A stretch of 64,000 bases of DNA from Escherichia coli. Lineage in GTDB: Bacteria; Pseudomonadota; Gammaproteobacteria; Enterobacterales; Enterobacteriaceae. A program made the position numbers and the translations under genes. Positions 6,594 through 58,425 of the stretch are shown piece after piece (within the stretch, counting starts at the first letter, position 1; each line of letters begins with the position of its first letter). The stretch lies in assembly GCF_044324875.1 (NCBI RefSeq), contig NZ_CP172187.1; one strand, given 5' to 3'. Below the pieces are notes generated by a model. That model saw only the letters and a program-made list of their open reading frames with translations, had not been told where the DNA came from and ran no database searches.

Positions 6594-6862
6594 TATTCTA
6601 ATAACTGAATCCACACACAGTCAAATGTCATTATTGTGACTAAAAAACGCTCAATTCTCTGAGGGTGTGGCTGTATGCCTGCTGTGGACTGCTGTGTCCA
6701 GCTTATCCACAGCATTTTGCGCACGGTTCTGTGAATAAAATACCTGGTTACCCAGGCCGTGCCGGCACGTTAACCGGGCTGCATCCAATGCAAGTGTGTC
6801 GCTGTCGCCGGCATCCTCACCAGGTCACTCAGCAGTCAGGGAGAAAAATGGCGGATGAAGTA

Positions 6863-7221
6863 TGACGGAGACGGTCGGGCAAGTGCCCGTTTCTTTTCCG
6901 ACAAAGGATGTCGCCGTGCTCCTCTTTTTACTGCGCCGGCTGACGCGGCGCGGCATAAACGCTGCCTGTGGTCAGTGTCCCGCGTCCGGCGGGCACGGGA
7001 CGGGCGCTTTTACCGCTCCCGGCTGGCGTCGGTGACAGTGTACGCCAGCCCGTCGCCCTTTTCTGATGAACGCCCTTCAAGCCGCTTTCGCGGCATAGCC
7101 TTGCCGTCAAAAAGACGACGGCTGCGGTATTCCACGGTCGGCCTGACCCGTTACCGGACGCGGTGAACAGCCCACAGGCAGCGGGGAACGGGCACCACAG
7201 GGGGGCCCTCCCGGTGCTCCT
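6863..7221 (+). repeat. leading-region repeat family A, copy 1 (~360 bp, GC-rich, contains long imperfect inverted repeat arms 6954-6989 / 7154-7184)
   Basis: Near-identical to 8168-8526; ends at the RBS of the downstream gene. Confidence 0.85.
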
Positions 7222-7236
7222 GTGAGGAGAATTCCC

Positions 7237-8163
7237 ATGCCAAACTGGTGCTCAAATCGTATGTATTTTTCTGGTGAACCAGCACAGATCGCTGAGATTA
7301 AACGACTGGCCAGCGGTGCAGTCACACCGCTTTATCGCCGCGCCACAGATGAAGGTATTCAGCTGTTTCTGGCCGGTAGTGCCGGACTTCTGCAGACCAC
7401 TGAAGATGTGCGGTTTGAACCATGCCCCGGACTGACGGCTGCCGGACGTGGTGTTGTATCGCCGGAGAATATCGCGTTCACCCGCTGGCTGACACACCTG
7501 CAGAACGGTGTGCTACTGGATGAAAAAAACTGCCTGATGCTGCATGAACTCTGGCTGCAGAGTGGTACTGGCCAGCGTCGCTGGGAAGGATTACCGGATG
7601 AGGTCAGGGAAAGCATCACCGTGCATTTCACCGCCAAAAGAGGTAACTGGTGTGGCTTCTGGAGTAACGAGGATGTATCGGTGTGGTGGAACCGTCTGTG
7701 TGACAATGTACTGCCGGAAAAAACCATGCCGTTTGACCTGCTGACGGTTCTGCCCACCCGCCTGGATGTTGAAGTGAATGGCTTTAACGGTGGTGTTCTG
7801 AACGGTGTTCCTTCTGCGTATCACTGGTATACGGAACAGTATGGCGTGAAGTGGCCTGTGGGGTATGAGGTGAATATCAGCAGTCAGGGAGACAACTTCA
7901 TTCAGGTTGATTTCGACACGCCGTGGTGTCAGCCGGAAAGCGACGTTATTGCAGAATTAAGCCGCCGTTTCAGTTGCACACTGGAGCACTGGTATGCCGA
8001 GCAGGGCTGCAATTTCTGTGGCTGGCAGCGATATGAGCGTGGAGAGCTTGTTGATGTCCTGTGGGGGGAATTGGAATGGTCTTCCCCGACAGATGACGAT
8101 GAGCTGCCGGAAGTCACCGGACCTGCGTGGATTGTCGACAAGGTGGCGCATTACGGTGGATGA
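7237..8163 (+). CDS. hypothetical Cys-rich leading-region protein (family not assigned)
   Basis: 308 aa from ATG preceded by GAGGAG RBS (MPNWCSNRMYF...); multiple Cys/Trp-rich motifs incl. CNFCGW. Confidence 0.7.
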   Translation: MPNWCSNRMYFSGEPAQIAEIKRLASGAVTPLYRRATDEGIQLFLAGSAGLLQTTEDVRFEPCPGLTAAGRGVVSPENIAFTRWLTHLQNGVLLDEKNCLMLHELWLQSGTGQRRWEGLPDEVRESITVHFTAKRGNWCGFWSNEDVSVWWNRLCDNVLPEKTMPFDLLTVLPTRLDVEVNGFNGGVLNGVPSAYHWYTEQYGVKWPVGYEVNISSQGDNFIQVDFDTPWCQPESDVIAELSRRFSCTLEHWYAEQGCNFCGWQRYERGELVDVLWGELEWSSPTDDDELPEVTGPAWIVDKVAHYGG

Positions 8164-8167
8164 ATTC

Positions 8168-8526
8168 TGACGGAGACGGGCGGGCAACCGCCCGTTTCTT
8201 TTCCGACAAAGGATGTCGCCGTGCTCCTCTTTTTACTGCGCCGGCTGACGCGGCGCGGCATAAACGCTGCCTGTGGTCAGTGTCCCGCGTCCGGCGGGCA
8301 CGGGACGGGCGCTTTTACCGCTCCCGGCTGGCACCGGTGACAGTGTACGCCAGCCCGTCGCCCTTTTCTGATGAACGCCCTTCAAGCCGCTTTCGCGGCA
8401 TAGCCTTGCCGTCAAAAAGACGACGGCTGCGGTATTCCACGGTCGGCCTGACCCGTTACCGGACGCGGTGAACAGCCCACAGGCAGCGGGGAACGGGCAC
8501 CACAGGGGTGCCCTCCCGGTGCCTTC
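8168..8526 (+). repeat. leading-region repeat family A, copy 2
   Basis: Near-identical to 6863-7221; ends at RBS of the methyltransferase gene. Confidence 0.85.
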
Positions 8527-8546
8527 TGTAAGAGAAGGAGGCTTTT

Positions 8547-9230
8547 ATGTCCCGTTTTATCCTGGGTGACTGCGTGCGAGTTATGGCCACGTTTCCGGAC
8601 AATGCTGTCGATTTCATCCTCACCGACCCGCCGTATCTCGTCGGTTTCCGTGACCGTTCCGGGCGCACCATTGCCGGTGACGTTAACGATGACTGGTTGC
8701 AACCTGCCAGCAATGAGATGTACCGCGTACTCAAAAAAGACGCTCTGTTGGTCAGCTTCTACGGCTGGAACCGTATTGACCGCTTTATGGCGGCCTGGAA
8801 ACGCGCCGGATTCAGCGTGGCAGGGCACCTCGTGTTCACCAAAAACTACACATCCAAATCTGCGTATGTCGCGTACCGCCACGAATGCGCCTACATCCTG
8901 GCAAAAGGCCGTCCACGTCTGCCACAAAACCCGCTGCCGGACGTGCTGGGCTGGAAATATTCGGGCAATCGTCATCACCCGACGGAAAAGCCTGTTACCA
9001 GCCTGCAACCGCTGATTGAGAGCTTCACACACCCGAACGCAATTGTGCTGGACCCGTTTGCAGGCAGCGGCTCAACCTGCGTTGCCGCCCTCCAGTCCGG
9101 ACGCCGGTATATCGGTATCGAGCTGCTTGAGCAGTATCACCGTGCCGGACAGCAACGACTGGCTGCCGTTCAACGGGCCATGCAGCAGGGGGCCGCGAAT
9201 GATGACTGGTTTATGCCGGAGGCTGCGTAA
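8547..9230 (+). CDS. orphan N6-adenine DNA methyltransferase (DPPY motif before FAGSGS motif; beta-class order)
   Basis: 227 aa; LTDPPY and DPFAGSGSTC motifs; AGGAGG RBS; no adjacent restriction endonuclease. Confidence 0.8.
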   Translation: MSRFILGDCVRVMATFPDNAVDFILTDPPYLVGFRDRSGRTIAGDVNDDWLQPASNEMYRVLKKDALLVSFYGWNRIDRFMAAWKRAGFSVAGHLVFTKNYTSKSAYVAYRHECAYILAKGRPRLPQNPLPDVLGWKYSGNRHHPTEKPVTSLQPLIESFTHPNAIVLDPFAGSGSTCVAALQSGRRYIGIELLEQYHRAGQQRLAAVQRAMQQGAANDDWFMPEAA

Positions 9231-9452
9231 ATGAACTATGCCGGACACGAAAAACTTCGCGCCGAAGTGGCGGAGGTGGCCAACACCATGTGTGACCTTC
9301 GGGCCAGGCTGAACGATATGGAGCATCGCTGTCGTTTTGATTCCGATGTGCTTGTTGAACGCCTGACACGCCAGACGCTGTATCGCGCCAATCGCCTGTT
9401 TATGGAGGCGTATACCGAAATTCTTGAACTGGATGCGTGCTTCAAAGATTAA
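9231..9452 (+). CDS. hypothetical small protein (73 aa)
   Basis: ATG overlaps upstream stop (TAAATG); within a co-directional gene block. Confidence 0.5.
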   Translation: MNYAGHEKLRAEVAEVANTMCDLRARLNDMEHRCRFDSDVLVERLTRQTLYRANRLFMEAYTEILELDACFKD

Positions 9453-9464
9453 GGGGGAGACGAA

Positions 9465-9899
9465 ATGTACGGAACATGCGAAACACTCTGCCGGGAGCTG
9501 GCAGCGCAGTATCCGGGAGACACGCCGCTGATGCTGGTTGTCTGGTCCCCGGAAGAGATTCAGGCACTGGCTGACGGTATGGAAATTTCTCTGACCGATC
9601 ATGAAATCAGGACCGTCCTGTCGCGCCTGGAGGACATCCCGGAAGACCAGCGGAGTGAATCCGGTATTTCTTCTGCCGCTGCGATGGAGATTATCAGCAA
9701 CGTGAGCGAAAACCGCCAGGTGACCGTCCCTGCTGAACTGCTGGCGTCCCTGATTCAGACCGCCGAACAGGCACTGTGGAAACGTGAATGGGCCGCCCGT
9801 GATAACGGCCTTGCCGTCCCGGAATGTGTTACCCGCCGTCAGGCAGTGATTAATCAGGCCCGCACCCTGCTGAAAAACAACACACACGAAAACAACTGA
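9465..9899 (+). CDS. hypothetical leading-region protein, paralog of the 11376-11798 product
   Basis: 144 aa; GGGGAGA RBS; shares MY..E..RE...VTVPA..L backbone with the 11376 ORF. Confidence 0.65.
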   Translation: MYGTCETLCRELAAQYPGDTPLMLVVWSPEEIQALADGMEISLTDHEIRTVLSRLEDIPEDQRSESGISSAAAMEIISNVSENRQVTVPAELLASLIQTAEQALWKREWAARDNGLAVPECVTRRQAVINQARTLLKNNTHENN

Positions 9900-10013
9900 T
9901 GTTATCGCCGCCTGCCCTCTGCCATTCAGAGACTGACCGGAACCGGGGCGGAACTGGTACTGTCCGGCAGTCAGTGGCAGTCGCTGCCGGTACTTCCGGC
10001 AGACGGAACGCAG

Positions 10014-10487
10014 GTGTCTTTCCCGTATGCCGGAGAATGGCTGACCGAAGACGAAATCAGGGCTGTTCTTGATGCGGTGCACGATGCGGTACGAAGCATC
10101 TGTTACCAGGTGGCAGAAGATACGCGGCGTATCCGTGCGGCGCTGACCACCACCGGTCAGACGTTGCTGACCCGCCAGACGCGCCGCTTTCGCCTGGTCG
10201 TGAAGGAAAGCGATCATCCCTGCTGGCTCGATGAAGATGACGAAAACCTGCCCGTAGTGCTCGATGTCATCGTGAACCGGGGCGCACGTTTTTCGGCAGT
10301 GGAAATGTACCTGGTCAGCGATTGTATTGAGCATATCCTGTCCAGTGGGCTGGCCTGCGATGTGCTGCGTATACCGGATGAACCGCCCCGCCGCTGGTTT
10401 GACCGTGGTGTTCTGCGGGAGGTGGTCCGGGAAGCCCGGACCGAAATCCGCAGCATGGCGGATGCCCTGGCAAAAATCCGTAAATGA
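10014..10487 (+). CDS. hypothetical protein; start uncertain (frame open back to the TGA at 9897-9899)
   Basis: 157 aa from GTG; same frame as the preceding ORF with only one intervening stop. Confidence 0.45.
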
Positions 10488-10638
10488 TGACACTGGCGGG
10501 GTAAATCCCCGCCTTTTTCCTGCCGGTCCCCGGACAGAGCACAAAGGAAGTCGCCGCCGGCTCCGCTTTACCCGGCCATGCGGGGCATGGCCTTGTGGAT
10601 TTTCAGTTATGTGGCCTCAGCGTCGTGTGCGGGCTGTG

Positions 10639-10858
10639 CCGTGCCTCCATCGTAGCCGGGCTTCTGCGGGCGGGTTGCAAGGTAAGGTGAACCGCTGCGG
10701 TCACCCGGTCCCTCCTTCCCGTCTGCCGTGATTTTCCGGTCGTTCACCCGCTCAGATTTCGCGGTCTCACCCTCCAACTCCCGCCAGCCGTGTGCGTCAG
10801 GCTGCGGCTTCCCTTGCGCCCTTGCAACCCTGCAGGCCCGGCAAAGATGGAGGCACGG
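10639..10858 (+). promoter_or_regulatory. long inverted repeat (arms ~40 nt at 10639-10682 and 10820-10858) able to form a large hairpin in ssDNA; Frpo/ssi-like candidate
   Basis: Arms read directly (CCGTGCCTCCATCGTAGCCGGGCTTCTGCGGGCGGGTTGCAAGG vs reverse complement of CCTTGCAACCCTGCAGGCCCGGCAAAGATGGAGGCACGG); just upstream of the klcA-like gene. Confidence 0.6.
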
Positions 10859-10903
10859 CACCGCCCGGTGTCGCGGAATATGTGAACAACGGAGGAAAAC
10901 ATC

Positions 10904-11329
10904 ATGCAATATGCGAAACCTGTCACTCTGAATGTTGAAGAGTGCGACCGTCTGTTTTTTCTGCCTTACCTGTTTGGCCAGGATTTTCTGTATGCCGAGG
11001 CATCTGTGTACGCGCTGGCGAAAAAAATGATGCCGGAATATGACGGCGGATTCTGGCACTTCATCCGCCTGCCGGACGGTGGCGGTTACATGATGCCGGA
11101 TGGCGACCGTTTTCATCTGGTCAACGGTGAAAACTGGTTTGACCGTACGGTCAGCGCCGATGCCGCAGGCATCATTGTGACTTCCCTTGTGATTAACCGT
11201 CAGTTGTGGCTGTACCACGACAGCGGTGATGCAGGACTGACTCACCTGTACAGGATGCGCGATGCGCAGTTGTGGAGCCACATCGAATTTCACCCCGAAT
11301 GCAATGCGATTTACGCGGCACTGGACTGA
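10904..11329 (+). CDS. klcA: KlcA/ArdB-family antirestriction-like protein
   Basis: 141 aa; GGAGG RBS; size and sequence character match KlcA/ArdB family from memory; followed by GGCGGCAATGCCGCC hairpin. Confidence 0.6.
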
Positions 11330-11375
11330 TTAACGGACGGGGCGGCAATGCCGCCCCTGTAAAGGAGACGAGAAC

Positions 11376-11798
11376 ATGTACTGTACTGTTAAAGAAATTA
11401 TCCGCGAAGTGCTGGATACAGACGTGCCGGACAGTGAATGCGTTTTTGCCGTGGTGCTGACCCGTGGGGATGTGCGCCACATAGCTCAGGACTGGAGTCT
11501 GGCAGACGATGAGCTGGAAACCGTCATGCAGCGGCTGGACGATGCCTTTGAGCATGGTGCGGATGTCAGCGTTGTTCACGACGTTGTTCGTGAACTGATG
11601 GAAGAAAAGCGCGCCAGCCGTCATGTGACAGTCCCGGCGATGATGCTGGAAAAAGTGATGGCGCTGGCAGGCAGTGAAATGAAGCGCCTGTATGCCGTCG
11701 GAAGTGAGAACGGGGGCGACGGTGACGCATTCGTCAGGGAGGAACGCGAAGCAATGGACGTTGTGTTACAGGCGCTGGACGGGGAGACGATGTCATGA
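11376..11798 (+). CDS. hypothetical leading-region protein, paralog of the 9465-9899 product
   Basis: 140 aa; AAGGAGA RBS; paralogy visible by eye. Confidence 0.65.
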   Translation: MYCTVKEIIREVLDTDVPDSECVFAVVLTRGDVRHIAQDWSLADDELETVMQRLDDAFEHGADVSVVHDVVRELMEEKRASRHVTVPAMMLEKVMALAGSEMKRLYAVGSENGGDGDAFVREEREAMDVVLQALDGETMS

Positions 11799-11986
11799 AT
11801 ATCAGCACAGAAACCCGCGAAATTCTGCGTAATTACAGGGCCGTGATTAATGCGCGGCGTCGTGAAATGGGGCAGAAACCGCTCACCACCGCGCAGATTG
11901 TTGATGAAATCTGCGATTTTGTGGCGAATCAGCAGGCGGTTTTCCTGGGCGGTCACTACATCTTACAGGGCAGCAGAAACAGGTGA
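11795..11986 (+). CDS. hypothetical small protein (63 aa)
   Basis: ATGA overlap with upstream gene. Confidence 0.4.
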   Translation: MNISTETREILRNYRAVINARRREMGQKPLTTAQIVDEICDFVANQQAVFLGGHYILQGSRNR

Positions 11987-12178
11987 TACAGGGGCAGGCG
12001 GTGGAGGCCGCCTGTCAGCCCGCGCGAAAACCCCTGGCAGGCTGACGCCTGCCGGAAGGGAAGCGGGCCACGCTGGCGCGTCGCCCGTTACCCTTCCCGT
12101 CTGTGATGTGTCTGACTCAGGAGTGTTTCTTTCTTATGTTGCGGAACTGTTCCTGATGTTGTTGTTGTTCCTTTATCT

Positions 12179-12788
12179 GCTGCTCTGATTCTGACTACTG
12201 CAGTGTTGTTCTGTCTGCCGGGCGCACCTTCGGCTCCCGGCTGCCTGGCGGCATCCGGTCGTCAGGCCCGACTCCGACAGGCAGCTGCTGGCGCACCTGC
12301 CAGTCTCCGCCGAACCCGCTGGCGCGGCTTCGGGCTGCCGCTACGGTCCGATGCGTGAAAACCCCGGGCTTGCAGCGACCGTTCTGGTCGCGCCGCCTCT
12401 GTCGCGCCGTGGCCTGCGCTCCAGGCATCCCGGCAAAAAGACGCCGGGATGTAAGGCGCAACGCCGTTTCGCAAACCGCGCTTCACGTCGTTGCTGCGGG
12501 TCCCTGCTCATTGCCTGCCGGGTGCCACACACCCGTATGAGTCCCTGTCGCCGGGGGCATAGACAGCCACAACCTGCCGCACTGACTGTCCAGGGTAAAT
12601 GAACAGCCCACAAAATTTTTTACCCAAAACCCGGTAAAAAATTTTGCGTTCTGCCCAGGACAGGTGCGTCAGGCCGTGGCAGTGATGCCCCTTGCGGCGA
12701 AGGTTCTCAAACGGGTGAAGTTCATACCACAGGGAATACAGCAGCAGGTTCCCGCGAAACGTCAAAACCGCGGCTCCCGAAACTCAAC
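12179..12788 (+). repeat. leading-region repeat family B, copy 1 (~610 bp, GC-rich, internal palindromes); Frpo/ssi-like
   Basis: Three near-identical direct copies (12179-12788, 15536-16167, 23600-24229); contains hairpins such as CATCCCGGC-AAAAAGAC-GCCGGGATG. Confidence 0.85.
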
Positions 12789-13027
12789 GGGTGATGTTCT
12801 TTAAAAATCAGGATTTATTTCAGGCTCCGGCAATACGCATTTATGTGTTCTGTCAGTCATCCGGCTGGCAGGTAATGAGAACGCAGGAACAGAAGGAGGA
12901 AAACACCGGAGAACGTCAGACGCAGATATGAAAAAAGCAGGCCGGGGAGGACCTGCTTAATCCACACCGCAAAAACTGTTCGAGCAGTTTCTGCGGTTCC
13001 ATTCAACAGTCATAAGGAGTTTCATTT

Positions 13028-13258
13028 ATGACGGTAAGTATTGTTTCACCTTCCGCAGCGGCTGTAAAGCCCCGCCGTCATCCCCGTTTCAGACGCGAAG
13101 ACATCCCCGCGCCGGAAATTGACCCCGTGCTGAAAGCCTTCGGGCGACACATAGCCCGGAGTTTTCACCGGGGGCGTGGTGTACACATCCCCGCCATGAA
13201 AAACACGGCCTTCGGGCAGGTGCTCCGCACACTCGAACTGAAACGCGCTTTTAACTGA
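13028..13258 (+). CDS. hypothetical basic small protein (76 aa)
   Basis: AAGGAG RBS; first ORF after repeat B1. Confidence 0.45.
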   Translation: MTVSIVSPSAAAVKPRRHPRFRREDIPAPEIDPVLKAFGRHIARSFHRGRGVHIPAMKNTAFGQVLRTLELKRAFN

Positions 13259-15281: not shown

Positions 15282-15460
15282 TGACACAGGGCTGGCGGGA
15301 GGATAAATGCCCGTCTGTCCGCGCCGGGAAAAGACCGCGCGCCGGTGGCGCTGAAAGGGGCCGCGCTCACGCGCCGCCCCTTTCATTACGCGGACGTTCT
15401 GATGGGGGCTTCTGTCTTTTCAGACCTGTCATTTGTCTGTTACTGATGATGTTGTTGTTC

Positions 15461-15525
15461 CTGCTACTGCTACTGCTACTGCTACTGCTACTGCTACTGC
15501 TACTGCTACTGCTACTGCTACTGCT
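15461..15525. repeat. hexanucleotide tandem repeat (CTGCTA)n, ~11 copies
   Basis: Read directly; absent at the equivalent position of repeat copies B1 and B3. Confidence 0.9.
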
Positions 15526-15535
15526 CTTCTTTTTC

Positions 15536-16167
15536 CTGCTGCTCTGATTCTGACTACTGCAGTGTTGTTCTGTCTGCCGGGCGCACCTTCGGCTCCCGGC
15601 TGCCTGGCGGCATCCGGTCGTCAGGCCCGACTCCGACAGGCAGCTGCTGGCGCACCTGCCAGTCTCCGCCGAACCCGCTGGCGCGGTTTCGGGCTGCCGC
15701 TACGGTCCGATGCGTGAAAACCCGGCTTGCAGCGACCGTTCCGGTCGCGCCGCCCCTGTCGCGCCGTGACCTGCGCTCCAGGCATCCCGGCAAAAAGACG
15801 CCGGGATGTAAGGCGCAACGCCGTTTCGCAAACCGCGCTTCACGTCGTTGCGGCGGGTCCCTGCCCGTTGTTGTGTCCGGTGCCATTCACCTGTTTAAGC
15901 CCCTGTCGCCGGGGGCTGATACAGCCACAACCTGCCGCACTGACTGTCCAGGGTAAATGAACAGCCCACAAAATTTTTTACCCAAAACCCGGTAAAAAAT
16001 TTTGCGTTCTGCCCAGGACAGGTGCGTCAGGCCGTGGCAGTGATGCCCCATGCGGCGAAGGTTCTCAAACAGGTGATGGTGAATACCGGAGGGAACAAAG
16101 AGCAGGTCCCCGCAAAACGTCAAAACCGCGGCTCCCGAAACTCAACAGATGATGGGGGCTGAAAACA
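15536..16167 (+). repeat. leading-region repeat family B, copy 2 (immediately upstream of ssb)
   Basis: Near-identical to copies at 12179 and 23600. Confidence 0.85.
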
Positions 16168-16187: not shown

Positions 16188-19100
16188 ATGGCAGTTCGTG
16201 GCATTAACAAGGTCATTCTTGTCGGTGTGCGCCGTTGAAGCGCGGTGTTTTATGGAGTGTTGCCTGAAAAGCAACATGGCTTAGTGGTATAGCCATTGCA
16301 TACTGTGGTTAGCCTTGCTTGGTAACAGGCTCGGAGATCCTGAAAAGGAGAGGTGAACATAGCATCCACAGAAAAGGGTGGTGAATATGGAAATCGTTAT
16401 AAGTATCACCATTCAATGCAAGATGTATATGGATAAACTGGGTTTGTTGAAGTCGAGATCTATGTGGGAAACAGGAAACCAATAACGCAGAACGATTGAA
16501 GCGTTATTCCCGTACTAGCACAAGAAATCCGTCCGACGTTGATTGTGACCACTCTAACGGGCCAGCTATTGATGAAATAGTTAAACGATCGAAAGACATC
16601 CTAAGTACATCGCATCTCCACACCGTGAAACTACGGGACTACCTAAACTGGATTTATACCCAGCATGGTAGCGGAGTCTCCATAGTACTCAAGGTCGGCC
16701 TGTAATGGGTTCCGGCAGTCCGCATTATACGGAAGCAGCAAAGGTATAAATCAACCGGAAGGAAGATGAAAGCCTCACAGTGCTGCGGGGAAGGGAGACA
16801 GTTGTTAGATACATCAATCTCTAAGAGGAGGGTTAGCCAATGCTGCCTGATGAACTTGAGAAAAGATTAGATGGAATTGAGGATGCTTCAAAAAAAGGGT
16901 ATCCAGTACGTAATCTATACAAAATTGCGTGTGAGCCCGGACTGTGGCTGCAAGCCTACGTGAATATACGGGCCAATGCAGGTGCACTGACTCAAGGTGT
17001 ATCAACAGATACCATTGATGGCTTTTCTATCGAAAGAGCAGAGAAGCTGGCAAAAACATTGCGGAGTAGAGAATACGTAGCGAAACCTGTACGCAGAGTT
17101 CAGATCCCAAAAAAGGACGGAAAAACCAGACCGCTGGGGATTCCAGGTGGAGACGATAAACTGGCGCAAGAAGTAGCAAGAATTATTCTGGAAAGGGTTT
17201 ATGAACCAGTATTCTCTGAACACTCTCATGGATTCAGACCAAAACGTTCGTGTGAAACTGCGCTCAGATCTATTCGTCCAGTCTGGAACGGAGTTAAATG
17301 GATCGTGGATGTTGATATCAAAGGTTTCTTTGACAATATCCCCCACAAACTATTGCTGAATACACTGGCAGAGAAAATTAAGGATAAGAATTTCCTGAAA
17401 TTAATCGAACAGTGGCTGAAGGCAGGATATGTGGACAATTGGAAATACCATCGCTCATATTCTGGCACGCCACAAGGTGGGATAATTTCTCCCTTACTGG
17501 CAAATATATACCTCGACAAACTGGACCGTTTTGTAGAACAGAATTTAATTCCTGCATATACAAGCGGTACAAAACGAAGAGCGAATCCAGATATGAACAG
17601 GCTGGCCCATAAGATTCATAAACTACGAAAGAAAGTAGACGGTATGGCAACTGATTCTGAATCAGAAAAAGAAGCCATAAAGAAAGAAATTGAACGACTG
17701 CTTGAAGAAAAACGTTCTATACCATCTCAGGTCATGAACGATCCAAACTTCAGGCGTATGTACTATGTTCGATATGCTGATGACTTCGTAATCGGTGTCA
17801 TCGGCTCGAAGAAAGATGCTGAACATATATCAAGACAGGTCAGAAACTTTATTACTACTTCACTGGGATTGGAAGTTAATGAAGCAAAGACCAGGATCCG
17901 CCATATCTCAGAAGGAGTTAATTTTTTAGGCTATGAAATCAGACAGGCAGATGCAAAGAAATTGCTGAAGCAGAAAATGCAAGGGCGGCACGCTCTCCGG
18001 AGATCCACCACAGGAATTGTGCAGCTCTTCGTTCCTGACAATATAGCCGCTAAATTTTGTCACCAAAAGAAATATGGCTGTTATGAGAATGTGAAGGCTG
18101 TACATCGTTCAAGTCTACAAAATCTCAGTGAAGCTGAAATTGTTCTGACTTTCAACGCGGAAATGCGCGGATTGGCGAACTACTACAGTCTGGCGCTGGA
18201 CATGAAATATAAATTATCAAAATTATATTTCATATGGCAAATAAGCCTTTTTAAGACCCTGGCGAATAAACGACGTAGTTCAGTGAATAAAGTCGCCAAA
18301 TCGCTACGGCAAAATAATGGAGATCTGGCTATTACCGTTCAGGCCAAAAATGGATCCCGAAAGATTGAGGTTTTCAAACTCAAACATGTCAATCGCAACC
18401 GAACAACGATTGTCGATACGGAACCGAGAACCGCACATATCACAACCCGCACAACAGAGATCATGCGTCGATTAGGGGCAAGGATCTGCGAGTATTGTGC
18501 GAAGACTGGGCGCTGCGAAGTACATCATGTCAGAAAGCTAAAAGACCTGAAGAAAGGTCGTAAGGCCGGATATAAACCCAGCTTGTGGCAACTAATGATG
18601 ATCGCACGCCGCCGGAAAACGATGATTTTGTGCGCAAGTTGCCACGACAAGTTACATAGCGGAAAACTACCCGATTTGAGACAGGAAAAGGGAAGAATAC
18701 TCCTGCAACCACCTGTCTCAAGCGGGGATTCTGCTAAATGAGTTTATCCCCAATAAGCTAGCAATGGAGAGCCGTATGCACTGAAAGGTGCACGTACGGT
18801 TCGGAGGGGGGGTAACGGTGATCTAACTCAAGATAAGCAGGACATATTCGCCATTTATCTTGAAAGACCACACGTACCCTACCCTACCGTCTGGGAAAAG
18901 ATCCGGAAGTCCGTTACATCCCAAACGGGGGCGCAGTGGCAAACCTGCAGGTGGCCACGTCAGAAAGCTGGCGCGACAAACAGACGGGGGAGATACGGGA
19001 GCAGACAGAATGGCATCGCGTGGTGCTGTTCGGCAAGCTCGCGGAAGTGGCTGGTGAGTATCTGCGCAAGGGCGCGCAGGTCTACATCGAAGGTCAGCTT

Positions 19101-56226: not shown

Positions 56227-58425
56227 ATGAGTTTTAACGCAAAGGATATGACCCAGGGCGGTCAGATTGCGTCCATGCGTATCCGCATGTTCAGCCAGAT
56301 CGCCAATATCATGCTTTACTGCCTGTTTATTTTTTTCTGGATACTCGTTGGTCTGGTTTTATGGGTAAAAATAAGCTGGCAGACGTTTGTGAACGGCTGT
56401 ATTTACTGGTGGTGTACCACGCTGGAAGGCATGCGGGATTTAATCAAGTCCCAGCCAGTATATGAGATTCAGTATTACGGCAAAACCTTCCGGATGAACG
56501 CTGCCCAGGTACTGCATGATAAATATATGATCTGGTGCGGTGAGCAGCTATGGTCCGCATTCGTTCTGGCGTCTGTCGTGGCCCTGGTTATTTGCCTGAT
56601 CACCTTCTTTGTTGTCTCCTGGATTCTGGGGCGTCAGGGTAAACAACAGAGCGAAAATGAAGTCACAGGTGGTCGTCAGCTGACAGACAATCCGAAAGAC
56701 GTTGCCCGGATGCTGAAAAAAGACGGCAAGGACTCCGATATCCGGATTGGCGACCTGCCGATTATCCGGGATTCCGAAATCCAGAACTTCTGTCTGCACG
56801 GCACGGTCGGGGCCGGTAAGTCGGAGGTTATCCGTCGTCTGGCCAACTACGCCCGTCAGCGCGGTGATATGGTGGTGATTTATGACCGTTCAGGGGAATT
56901 TGTTAAAAGTTACTATGATCCCTCCATCGATAAAATCCTGAATCCGCTGGATGCCCGCTGTGCCGCATGGGATTTGTGGAAGGAGTGCCTGACACAGCCG
57001 GATTTTGATAATACCGCAAATACTCTGATCCCTATGGGTACAAAAGAGGACCCGTTCTGGCAGGGTTCAGGACGTACCATTTTTGCGGAAGCGGCGTACC
57101 TGATGCGTAATGACCCCAACCGCAGCTACAGCAAACTGGTGGACACACTGCTTTCCATCAAAATTGAAAAACTGCGTACCTTCCTGCGTAATTCACCGGC
57201 AGCCAACCTGGTGGAAGAGAAAATTGAGAAAACGGCGATTTCCATCCGTGCTGTGCTGACCAACTACGTGAAAGCCATCCGTTACCTGCAGGGGATTGAG
57301 CATAACGGTGAGTCTTTTACCATCCGTGACTGGATGCGTGGTGTCCGGGAAGATCAGAAAAACGGCTGGCTGTTTATCTCGTCGAATGCCGACACCCATG
57401 CCTCCCTGAAGCCGGTGATCTCCATGTGGCTGTCCATTGCCATTCGTGGTCTGCTGGCAATGGGAGAAAACCGTAACCGTCGTGTGTGGTTTTTCTGTGA
57501 CGAGTTACCCACGTTACACAAACTGCCGGACCTGGTGGAGATCCTGCCGGAAGCCCGTAAGTTCGGAGGCTGTTATGTGTTTGGTATCCAGTCCTATGCC
57601 CAGCTGGAAGATATCTACGGTGAGAAAGCGGCGGCCACGCTGTTTGACGTCATGAACACCCGTGCTTTTTTCCGTTCCCCGAGCCATAAGATTGCAGAGT
57701 TCGCTGCCGGTGAGATTGGTGAGAAAGAGCACCTGAAAGCCAGCGAGCAGTATTCCTACGGTGCTGACCCGGTACGTGACGGGGTATCGACCGGTAAGGA
57801 TATGGAGCGTCAGACACTGGTCAGTTATTCCGACATTCAGTCTCTGCCGGATCTGACCTGCTATGTCACTCTGCCCGGACCGTATCCGGCAGTAAAACTC
57901 TCCCTGAAATATCAGGCACGACCGAAGGTCGCTCCGGAGTTTATTCCGCGTGACATCAACCCGGAAATGGAGAACCGTCTGAGTGCCGTACTTGCTGCAA
58001 GGGAAGCAGAAGGTCGCCAGATGGCCAGCCTCTTCGAACCGGAGGTTGCCTCCGGAGAAGGCGTGACTCAGGCTGAACAGCCACAACAGCCACAACAGCC
58101 ACAACAGCCACAACAGCCACAACAGCCACAACAGCCACAACAGCCAGTGTCTTCTGTCATGAATGATAAGAAGTCAGATGCAGGTGTGAGTGTTCCGGCA
58201 GGGGGGATCGAGCAGGAGCTGAAAATGAAACCGGAAGAAGAGATGGAACAGCAACTGCCACCCGGGATCAGTGAATCCGGTGAAGTGGTGGATATGGCCG
58301 CTTATGAGGCATGGCAACAGGAAAATCATCCGGACATCCAGCAGCAGATGCAGCGTCGTGAAGAGGTGAACATTAATGTGCACCGGGAGCGCGGGGAGGA
58401 TGTTGAGCCGGGAGATGATTTCTGA
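56227..58425 (+). CDS. traD: TraD coupling protein (T4CP)
   Basis: 732 aa from [13 protein letters not shown]...; Walker A GTVGAGKS; C-terminal QPQ repeats. Confidence 0.9.
58078..58146 (+). repeat. in-frame 9-bp tandem repeat (CAGCCACAA)x~7.7 encoding (QPQ)n in TraD C-terminus
   Basis: Read directly. Confidence 0.9.

Follow-up and report, generated by a model that had tools for sequence, protein, structure and literature searches.

The genes at 9465-9899 and 11376-11798 of the window (the whole stretch of 64,000 nucleotides analyzed here) encode proteins, hereafter A and B, that are by sequence comparison true homologues over their full length and paralogues within the family DUF1380. Each copy belongs to an operon of its own, and each subfamily has stayed with its operon partner across lineages whose methyltransferases diverged to 70% identity. 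This strict linkage of the A and B subfamilies to different operons in the loci examined is the modest new point of the analysis; the pair as such is ordinary, previously annotated plasmid backbone and does not represent a duplication that is diversifying locally. We infer that A and B are most likely zygotically induced accessory factors of establishment or anti-defence that act by binding proteins.

The window derives from an IncF-type conjugative plasmid, with a transfer region marked by TraM (26707-27090), TraJ, the TraI relaxase (58419-63692) and further tra genes, and oriT is flanked by traM and the SLT gene (25774-26376, minus strand). Upstream of it, the classic leading-region genes are encoded on the plus strand, namely DUF932, hok/sok, psiA, psiB, a ParB-like gene and ssb. 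A and B map to the same leading region, as originally predicted, at a distance of about 15-17 kb from oriT. Like ssb, psiB and psiA they are encoded on the plus strand upstream of oriT, so that the transferred strand is the template, and with a position between oriT and the maintenance region they have both the location and the coding strand of zygotically induced leading-region genes. The region contains the following features:

8155-8488, minus strand: hairpin-forming element, candidate ssDNA promoter, upstream of the methyltransferase operon (direct repeat, inverted arms and folding)
8547-9230, plus strand: orphan N6/N4 DNA methyltransferase, M.EcoGIX-like, opening operon 1 (Pfam N6_N4_Mtase, E 4e-39)
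9231-9452, plus strand: small protein of the YubE/YfcA family, 73 aa (ORF; Pfam PF27407 YubE in orthologues)
9465-9899, plus strand: DUF1380 paralogue A, 144 aa (Pfam PF07128, 177.2 bits, E 2e-52)
9900-10487, plus strand: YchA/YubG remnant (F plasmid comparison; annotatable ORF 10014-10487)
10495-10520, plus strand: intrinsic terminator ending operon 1 (GGCGGGG-TAAAT-CCCCGCC, then TTTTTCC)
10630-10867, minus strand: large hairpin, candidate class 2 ssDNA promoter, upstream of klcA (32-nt arms, 91% complementary)
10904-11329, plus strand: KlcA/ArdB-type antirestriction protein, opening operon 2 (Pfam Antirestrict, E 1e-26)
11339-11357, plus strand: GC-rich stem-loop between klcA and B, read from the sequence as GGGGCGGC-AAT-GCCGCCCC, without a T tract
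11376-11798, plus strand: DUF1380 paralogue B, 140 aa (Pfam PF07128, 21.5 bits; profile-profile 99.4% to the A subfamily)
11795-11986, plus strand: small basic protein YffA/Hp13, 63 aa (ORF; its start overlaps the B stop, ATGA)

The placement of A and B on either side of klcA, also part of the original prediction, is thereby confirmed. Both DUF1380 genes are intact reading frames with an ATG start and a strong Shine-Dalgarno sequence, which is AAGGGGGAG before 9465 for A and AAGGAG at 11362-11367, 3' of the stem-loop at 11339-11357, for B. The methyltransferase corresponds to YfeA in F and YfbB in R64; the start of YubE (9231) abuts its stop codon directly, and YubE orthologues with Pfam PF27407 are found at every related locus. 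The YchA/YubG remnant continues in frame after the TGA stop of A, and comparison with the F plasmid indicates that its start and first ~62 codons are gone through a 232-bp microhomology deletion; most plasmids have ~232 bp extra at this position.

The starting point had been a backbone common to the two products, with pairwise alignment and a family search proposed as the check, and the similarity was confirmed. Pairwise BLASTP of A against B gave 38.5 bits (E 3e-9); the alignment runs collinearly from Met1 and has 27% identical positions in 116 aa. Among the 870 stop-to-stop ORFs of the window A and B are reciprocal best hits (E ~5e-7, next hits at E>1), with no third, hidden DUF1380 paralogue in this set. 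A profile-profile comparison of the two subfamilies, each with a profile of its own (17 sequences for A, 7 for B), gave an alignment of 133 columns at a probability of 99.4% and an E-value of 5.8e-21. The quoted backbone (MY..., RE, VTVPA..L) falls on columns that are invariant or nearly invariant in a diverse alignment of 21 members (M1, Y2, R10, L12, E47, R84, V86, V88, P89, A90 and L93). The PF07128 (DUF1380) HMM matches A over the full 137-position model with 177.2 bits (E 2e-52), above the gathering score of 26 bits, and B with 21.5 bits (E 2.7e-4), under this score. Homology of B is nevertheless secure in view of the profile-profile match (E 6e-21), the NCBI name DUF1380 and PHROG 9024 (phrog_9024), an unnamed family that matches 20 of the 21 diverse members. 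Next to no credence is left for a resemblance by chance or composition, or for one copy being a decaying pseudogene, as the sub-threshold Pfam score of B (21.5 vs 26 bits) and its poor structure model might suggest, since this is refuted by the collinear full-length profile-profile match, the reciprocal hits inside the window, and intact ORFs with strong Shine-Dalgarno sequences, purifying selection and conservation across thousands of plasmids.

RefSeq names both A and B "DUF1380 family protein", the F plasmid included. A is known as YubF (F plasmid), YcgB, YfcB (R64) and Hp10 (pESBL), and B as YubJ (F plasmid), YcjA/YcgC, YfeC (R64) and Hp12 (pESBL), with YcgB and YcjA/YcgC being the names in R100-type plasmids. 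The F plasmid proteins are 92% (A) and 94% (B) identical at matching positions and in the same gene order, which runs DNA methylase, 73-aa protein, DUF1380, hypothetical protein, antirestriction protein, DUF1380, small ORF and then ssb; the sole notable difference from the F module is the truncated YchA gene of the window (232-bp deletion). Using an identity of >=90% and a coverage of >=80%, the 3.4-kb module, which begins with the methyltransferase and ends with the small ORF behind B, was found in at least 4,933 PLSDB plasmids. They come from Escherichia, Klebsiella, Salmonella and Shigella, belong to the types IncF, IncI and IncK, and routinely have the pair annotated as "DUF1380 family protein (x2)". 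In Samuel et al. (2024) both proteins are listed with the largest leading-region families still uncharacterised (PMC11541004, supplementary file 3): family 7 corresponds to A (DUF1380; YcgB/YfcB/YubF) with 3,957 members, as median the 19th ORF from oriT, and family 14 to B (YcjA/YcgC/YfeC/YubJ) with 3,145 members, the 15th ORF from oriT. Both are in leading-strand orientation and were proposed as anti-defence candidates; the table lists them apart, without a statement of paralogy or of differing operon ties (PMC11541004).

DUF1380 is confined to Enterobacterales plasmids and has a narrow taxonomic range. A search of 1.84 billion representatives with the DUF1380 HMM returned only 276 clusters at E <=0.001, many of them fragments, and all named members are from Enterobacterales (Escherichia, Salmonella, Klebsiella, Enterobacter, Citrobacter, Pantoea, Erwinia, Pectobacterium, Yersinia, Scandinavium and Mixta). 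As no match to A or B was obtained by tblastn in 50,697 phage genomes, PHROG 9024 probably stems from plasmid-like or prophage-predicted sequence. In the searchable literature we found neither a functional study of DUF1380, looking by DUF, Pfam and gene name, nor an in vivo restriction-relief experiment for DUF1380 proteins.

The pair had been described as duplicated and diverging. The duplication holds, but as an ancient event and not as a recent or ongoing one. In each of the five lineages carrying A and B together, the two proteins of one plasmid are 21-25% identical, and a neighbour-joining tree separates the copies of methyltransferase operons and those of KlcA operons into two clean clades, exactly by context. 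The split in the tree together with the constant identity indicates that the duplication is old and preceded the separation of plasmid lineages with methyltransferases only 70% identical; neither the tree nor the lineages compared show signs of recent duplication or gene conversion.

The same picture emerges from a context survey of eight distant DUF1380 members. Each A-type copy is the third gene in the order N6_N4 methyltransferase, YubE (PF27407), DUF1380 (loci L004/5, L006-8, L009-11, L020, L022/3, L025/6 and L027/8), and every B-type copy has an Antirestrict (KlcA/ArdB) gene upstream of it, at a distance of 40-46 nt (L004/5, L020/1, L022/3, the window and F). A small ORF overlapping the stop of B is present in the window, in F and in L020/L021, where the contig continues, and also at the unplaced L024 copy. 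A and KlcA occur without B in L009 and L027, and in L006 ArdA stands in the place of KlcA and B is absent. In the loci examined, B always came together with KlcA, and A with methyltransferase and YubE. The operon linkage can guide tests beyond single genes, which would combine A with the methyltransferase-YubE module and B with KlcA. Candidate Rosetta-stone fusions (YubE-A, A-YchA, KlcA-B and B-YffA) were rejected as single-member database clusters, several of them with frameshifted segments or deletion junctions.

A and B lie in two adjacent, separate transcription units of the leading region. This follows from the terminator at 10495-10520, the lack of a sigma-70 promoter and a T-strand hairpin before each unit. 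The first unit consists of hairpin, M.EcoGIX-like ssDNA methyltransferase, YubE, DUF1380-A, YchA and terminator, and the second of hairpin, KlcA/ArdB, DUF1380-B and YffA. No sigma-70 consensus promoter was detected in 8100-12100. Folded as ssDNA, the minus (transferred) strand reaches -110 kcal/mol both at 8164-8546 (z = -6.8 vs shuffles) and at 10488-10903 (z = -6.0). The element at 8155-8488 has inverted arms at 8265-8294 and 8459-8488 and is a 97% direct-repeat copy of 6850-7183, the element before the DUF1281 gene. In silico both operons combine a T-strand hairpin with the lack of a dsDNA promoter, as expected of members of the ssDNA-promoter regulon. The window hairpins, known from sequence folding, resemble the published ssDNA promoters of pESBL and F: in pESBL, hairpin promoters of class 3 (M.EcoGIX operon) and class 2 (5' of klcA) were mapped by 5' RACE, homologues of these are marked in F, and in both plasmids the M.EcoGIX and KlcA operons are induced in transconjugants within minutes of recipient entry, in a burst of transcripts that precedes complementary-strand synthesis and starts at hairpin promoters formed by the entering single strand (PMC12672017). 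The lead genes of both operons are well known, as M.EcoGIX, an enzyme methylating ssDNA, guards pESBL against restriction (PMC4288162, PMC7736820) and KlcA/ArdB inhibits type I systems (PMC2836571).

The idea of diversifying selection gained no support. Nei-Gojobori estimates of gene-wide dN/dS, made from small samples of 9-11 plasmids with recombination ignored, are 0.28 for A (9 sequences) and 0.26 for B (11 sequences), and neither gene shows a gene-wide dN/dS >1 or a non-synonymous excess. Moreover, orthologues of A and B keep >=80% identity across thousands of enterobacterial plasmids. Both genes are under purifying selection, 2-3 times looser than that on the methyltransferase (0.08) and KlcA (0.11); the corresponding values are 0.16 for YubE and 0.085 for YffA. 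It follows from the purifying selection that A and B are both functional genes. They are constrained yet relatively fast-evolving compared with their neighbours, with an identity between distant plasmids of 28-42% for A vs 70-88% for the methyltransferase and 47-64% for KlcA. In the enterobacterial allele pool, residues 1-58 of B are almost invariant, and the variation is concentrated at residues 79-83, at 123-129 and in a cassette spanning 59-73, of which there are at least three allele types.

A is acidic (pI 4.60, net charge -10) and B very acidic (pI 4.41, net charge -17), and a pI <5.2 is found in 20 of the 21 diverse members. This is the acidity expected of DNA mimics or acidic decoy proteins, a property which is necessary but far from sufficient. 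The AlphaFold models of A (pLDDT 75) and B (pLDDT 49, low confidence) have six helices in the same order. A mostly helical domain is predicted at the N-terminus, followed by the conserved R-x-V-T-V-P-A linker and then, at the C-terminus, by a predicted antiparallel helical hairpin. Fold searches with both models, that of B at a pLDDT of 49, returned generic helical hairpins only and no match to a solved structure, and the profile search of PDB sequences gave only designed helical repeats and calmodulin noise. NCBIfam and PADLOC had no match for A or B, and across Pfam, NCBIfam, PHROGs, PADLOC and PDB profiles no enzyme, DNA-binding or defence-related family was matched. Alignment of DUF1380 with hhalign to the YubE, YchA, KlcA and YffA alignments revealed no relationship. 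DUF1380 lies outside the antirestriction families PF03230 and PF07275, without a Pfam or fold match and with 0.1% for KlcA in hhalign; it differs from KlcA/ArdB and ArdA in sequence, profile and fold, and what B has in common with KlcA is the predicted co-transcription.

Our preferred reading, which we consider about evenly balanced between right and wrong, is that DUF1380 proteins assist the early anti-restriction/establishment programme as accessory factors that bind other proteins, with one module for each of the two to specialise in. They would be small, acidic, helical, non-enzymatic binding proteins of the first minutes after transfer. A would act alongside the ssDNA methyltransferase and YubE, and B alongside KlcA, in the same anti-restriction/establishment pathway, where they might tune or extend the activity of the partner or block another host factor; after the duplication, each copy would have become specialised to one module. 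This pathway reading is supported by the homology, the ancient split matching the context, the synteny, the two units and the published induction of both operons, as well as by the conserved acidity, the purifying selection and the high prevalence in leading regions. An anti-defence role of A and B is plausible by context, and it is also the published working hypothesis for families 7 and 14 (PMC11541004, supplementary file 3). A narrower version, in which DUF1380 is a partner-specific anti-defence family, with A for example guiding or enhancing the methylation of incoming DNA strands and B broadening the set of restriction systems that KlcA/ArdB counteracts, seems improbable to us. If it were true, deletions would narrow the host range in defence-rich recipients, although the genes are dispensable in the laboratory.

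Several observations speak against the pathway reading. M.EcoGIX and KlcA/ArdB are each active when cloned alone (PMC7736820, PMC2836571), which argues against an obligatory partnership with DUF1380, and KlcA occurs without B in two lineages. Furthermore, there is no fold or sequence similarity to characterised anti-defence proteins, with the model of B at a pLDDT of 49, and where genes of a plasmid backbone keep a conserved order, the cause may be co-inheritance and not functional coupling. In the pESBL TnSeq data Hp10 and Hp12 score 1.00 as non-essential for maintenance and for transfer in laboratory E. coli, the class that also contains ArdA, KlcA, PsiB and M.EcoGIX (PMC4288162); this shared class shows only that any role of DUF1380 is conditional. 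The idea of B as the missing cofactor behind an activity of KlcA "in vivo but not in vitro" is weakened by the finding that KlcA/ArdB work alone (PMC2836571), and also by a 2025 paper which reports inhibition by ArdB in vitro (PMC12429846).

Alternatively, A and B could each inhibit host defences independently of their neighbours, for instance as DNA mimics or acidic decoys, with a different target for each copy and with an arms race against host defence systems still diversifying them. We regard this as rather unlikely, although it would account for the leading-region location, the early expression and the acidic composition, and it is in line with the faster evolution than that of the flanking genes (A at 28-42% vs 70-88% for the methyltransferase between lineages, dN/dS 2-3 times that of the methyltransferase or KlcA) and with the variable cassette of B. 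The gene-wide dN/dS of 0.26-0.28 without a sign of positive selection and the >=80% identity of orthologues across thousands of enterobacterial plasmids are at odds with such an arms race, as is the fact that no copy-number variation, recent duplication or shuffling between the positions was seen. Nor would stand-alone inhibitors be expected to stay so strictly with one operon per subfamily, and A and B have no similarity to known inhibitors or PADLOC models.

A second alternative, in our opinion an unlikely one, is that A and B serve the early programme in regulation or housekeeping and are not anti-defence proteins. Possible roles would be the shut-off of ssDNA promoters, limiting the toxicity of a promiscuous methyltransferase, aid in complementary-strand synthesis or, as with the ParB-like HerB/YfjB, lowering the cost of acquisition. 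HerB is a precedent, since this leading-region "unknown" turned out to be an establishment or host-reprogramming factor and not a defence inhibitor (PMC13370423), and distal cistrons behind an effector, the position of A and B, are a common place for modulators. However, no DNA-binding motif or family was detected in A and B with Pfam and NCBIfam, and the strong acidity argues against binding of nucleic acids.

Resistance and virulence plasmids of the types IncF, IncI and IncK carry both genes, in thousands of cases, and the two are among the commonest leading-region genes lacking an assigned function. If either helps to evade recipient defences or to become established early on, it would belong to the machinery by which clinically important resistance plasmids have their host range determined. 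DUF932/YubP, DUF905/YubL and the ParB-like YfjB/HerB, whose sequences are unrelated to DUF1380 and whose functions have only lately begun to emerge, resemble A and B in being conserved, zygotically induced and laboratory-dispensable (PMC13370423, PMC4288162).

The ssb gene of the leading region is split after nucleotide 39 by a 2.66-kb group II intron, as a comparison with the uninterrupted ssb of plasmid pTB-nb3 revealed. A second gene of this region, encoding a ParB-like protein, is split as well:

about 16188-16226 and 18888-19376, the ssb exons
16227-18887, group II intron in ssb, based on the alignment with pTB-nb3 ssb, the RT/maturase/HNH ORF and Rfam domains
16840-18741, RT/maturase/HNH ORF inside the intron
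18767-18887, Rfam Intron_gpII domains of the intron
19729-21686, split ParB-like gene yubM/yfjB

With the intron inside ssb, splicing would be a prerequisite for any SSB from a gene that is supposedly expressed within minutes of plasmid entry. The ParB-like gene, yubM/yfjB, lately named herB, is intact in pTB-nb3 (652 aa), whereas a single-base indel here leaves two ORFs, 232 and 426 aa long, that overlap. It is possible that the split herB is a pseudogene or a sequencing error.

Two pairs of direct repeats were found, one of about 300 bp with 97% identity and a further one of about 650 bp with 93-97% identity:

6850-7183, ~300-bp repeat, copy 1, 5' of the DUF1281 gene (7222-8163)
8155-8488, ~300-bp repeat, copy 2, 5' of the methyltransferase gene
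12147-12796, ~650-bp repeat, copy 1, upstream of the block of 13028, DUF3560 and SAM methyltransferase
15437-16154, ~650-bp repeat, copy 2, upstream of ssb

Both copies of the shorter repeat contain inverted arms of 30 nt and look like duplicated hairpins of ssDNA promoters, and the longer repeats are probably Frpo/ssi-type elements.

In orthologues of B, the DUF1380 paralogue behind KlcA, residues 59-73 (about 11550-11594 in the window) occur as discrete allele cassettes, FEHGADVSVVHDVVREL, FVYGACDRVVSDIVNEL and FENGANDRVVNEIVNEL. Since the proteins bearing them are nearly identical outside this segment, the sequences suggest that one surface segment of B is exchanged by recombination. A stem-loop at 11339-11357, with a perfect 8-bp GC stem and no T tract, lies after the stop codon of klcA and before the B Shine-Dalgarno sequence; it could adjust the output of B against that of KlcA, at the level of read-through or of translation. 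YchA/YubG, located between the other DUF1380 paralogue, A, and klcA, is a remnant:

9897-10487, YchA/YubG remnant, in frame, immediately 3' of the TGA stop of A

A 232-bp deletion bounded by short GCCGCC repeats has removed the start of YchA/YubG along with about 62 codons; in most plasmids the gene is complete and encodes 258 aa.

An Rfam match of 89.7 bits to AS-pc01, the antisense RNA to pHK01_035, was detected at 12932-13033 on the minus strand, where it overlaps the start of a 76-aa ORF (13028-13258). Finally, CTGCTA hexamers form a run of repeats at 15449-15530 within a small ORF 3' of the SAM methyltransferase; this 6-bp repeat varies in number in yddA of F33 plasmids (PMC6052338).
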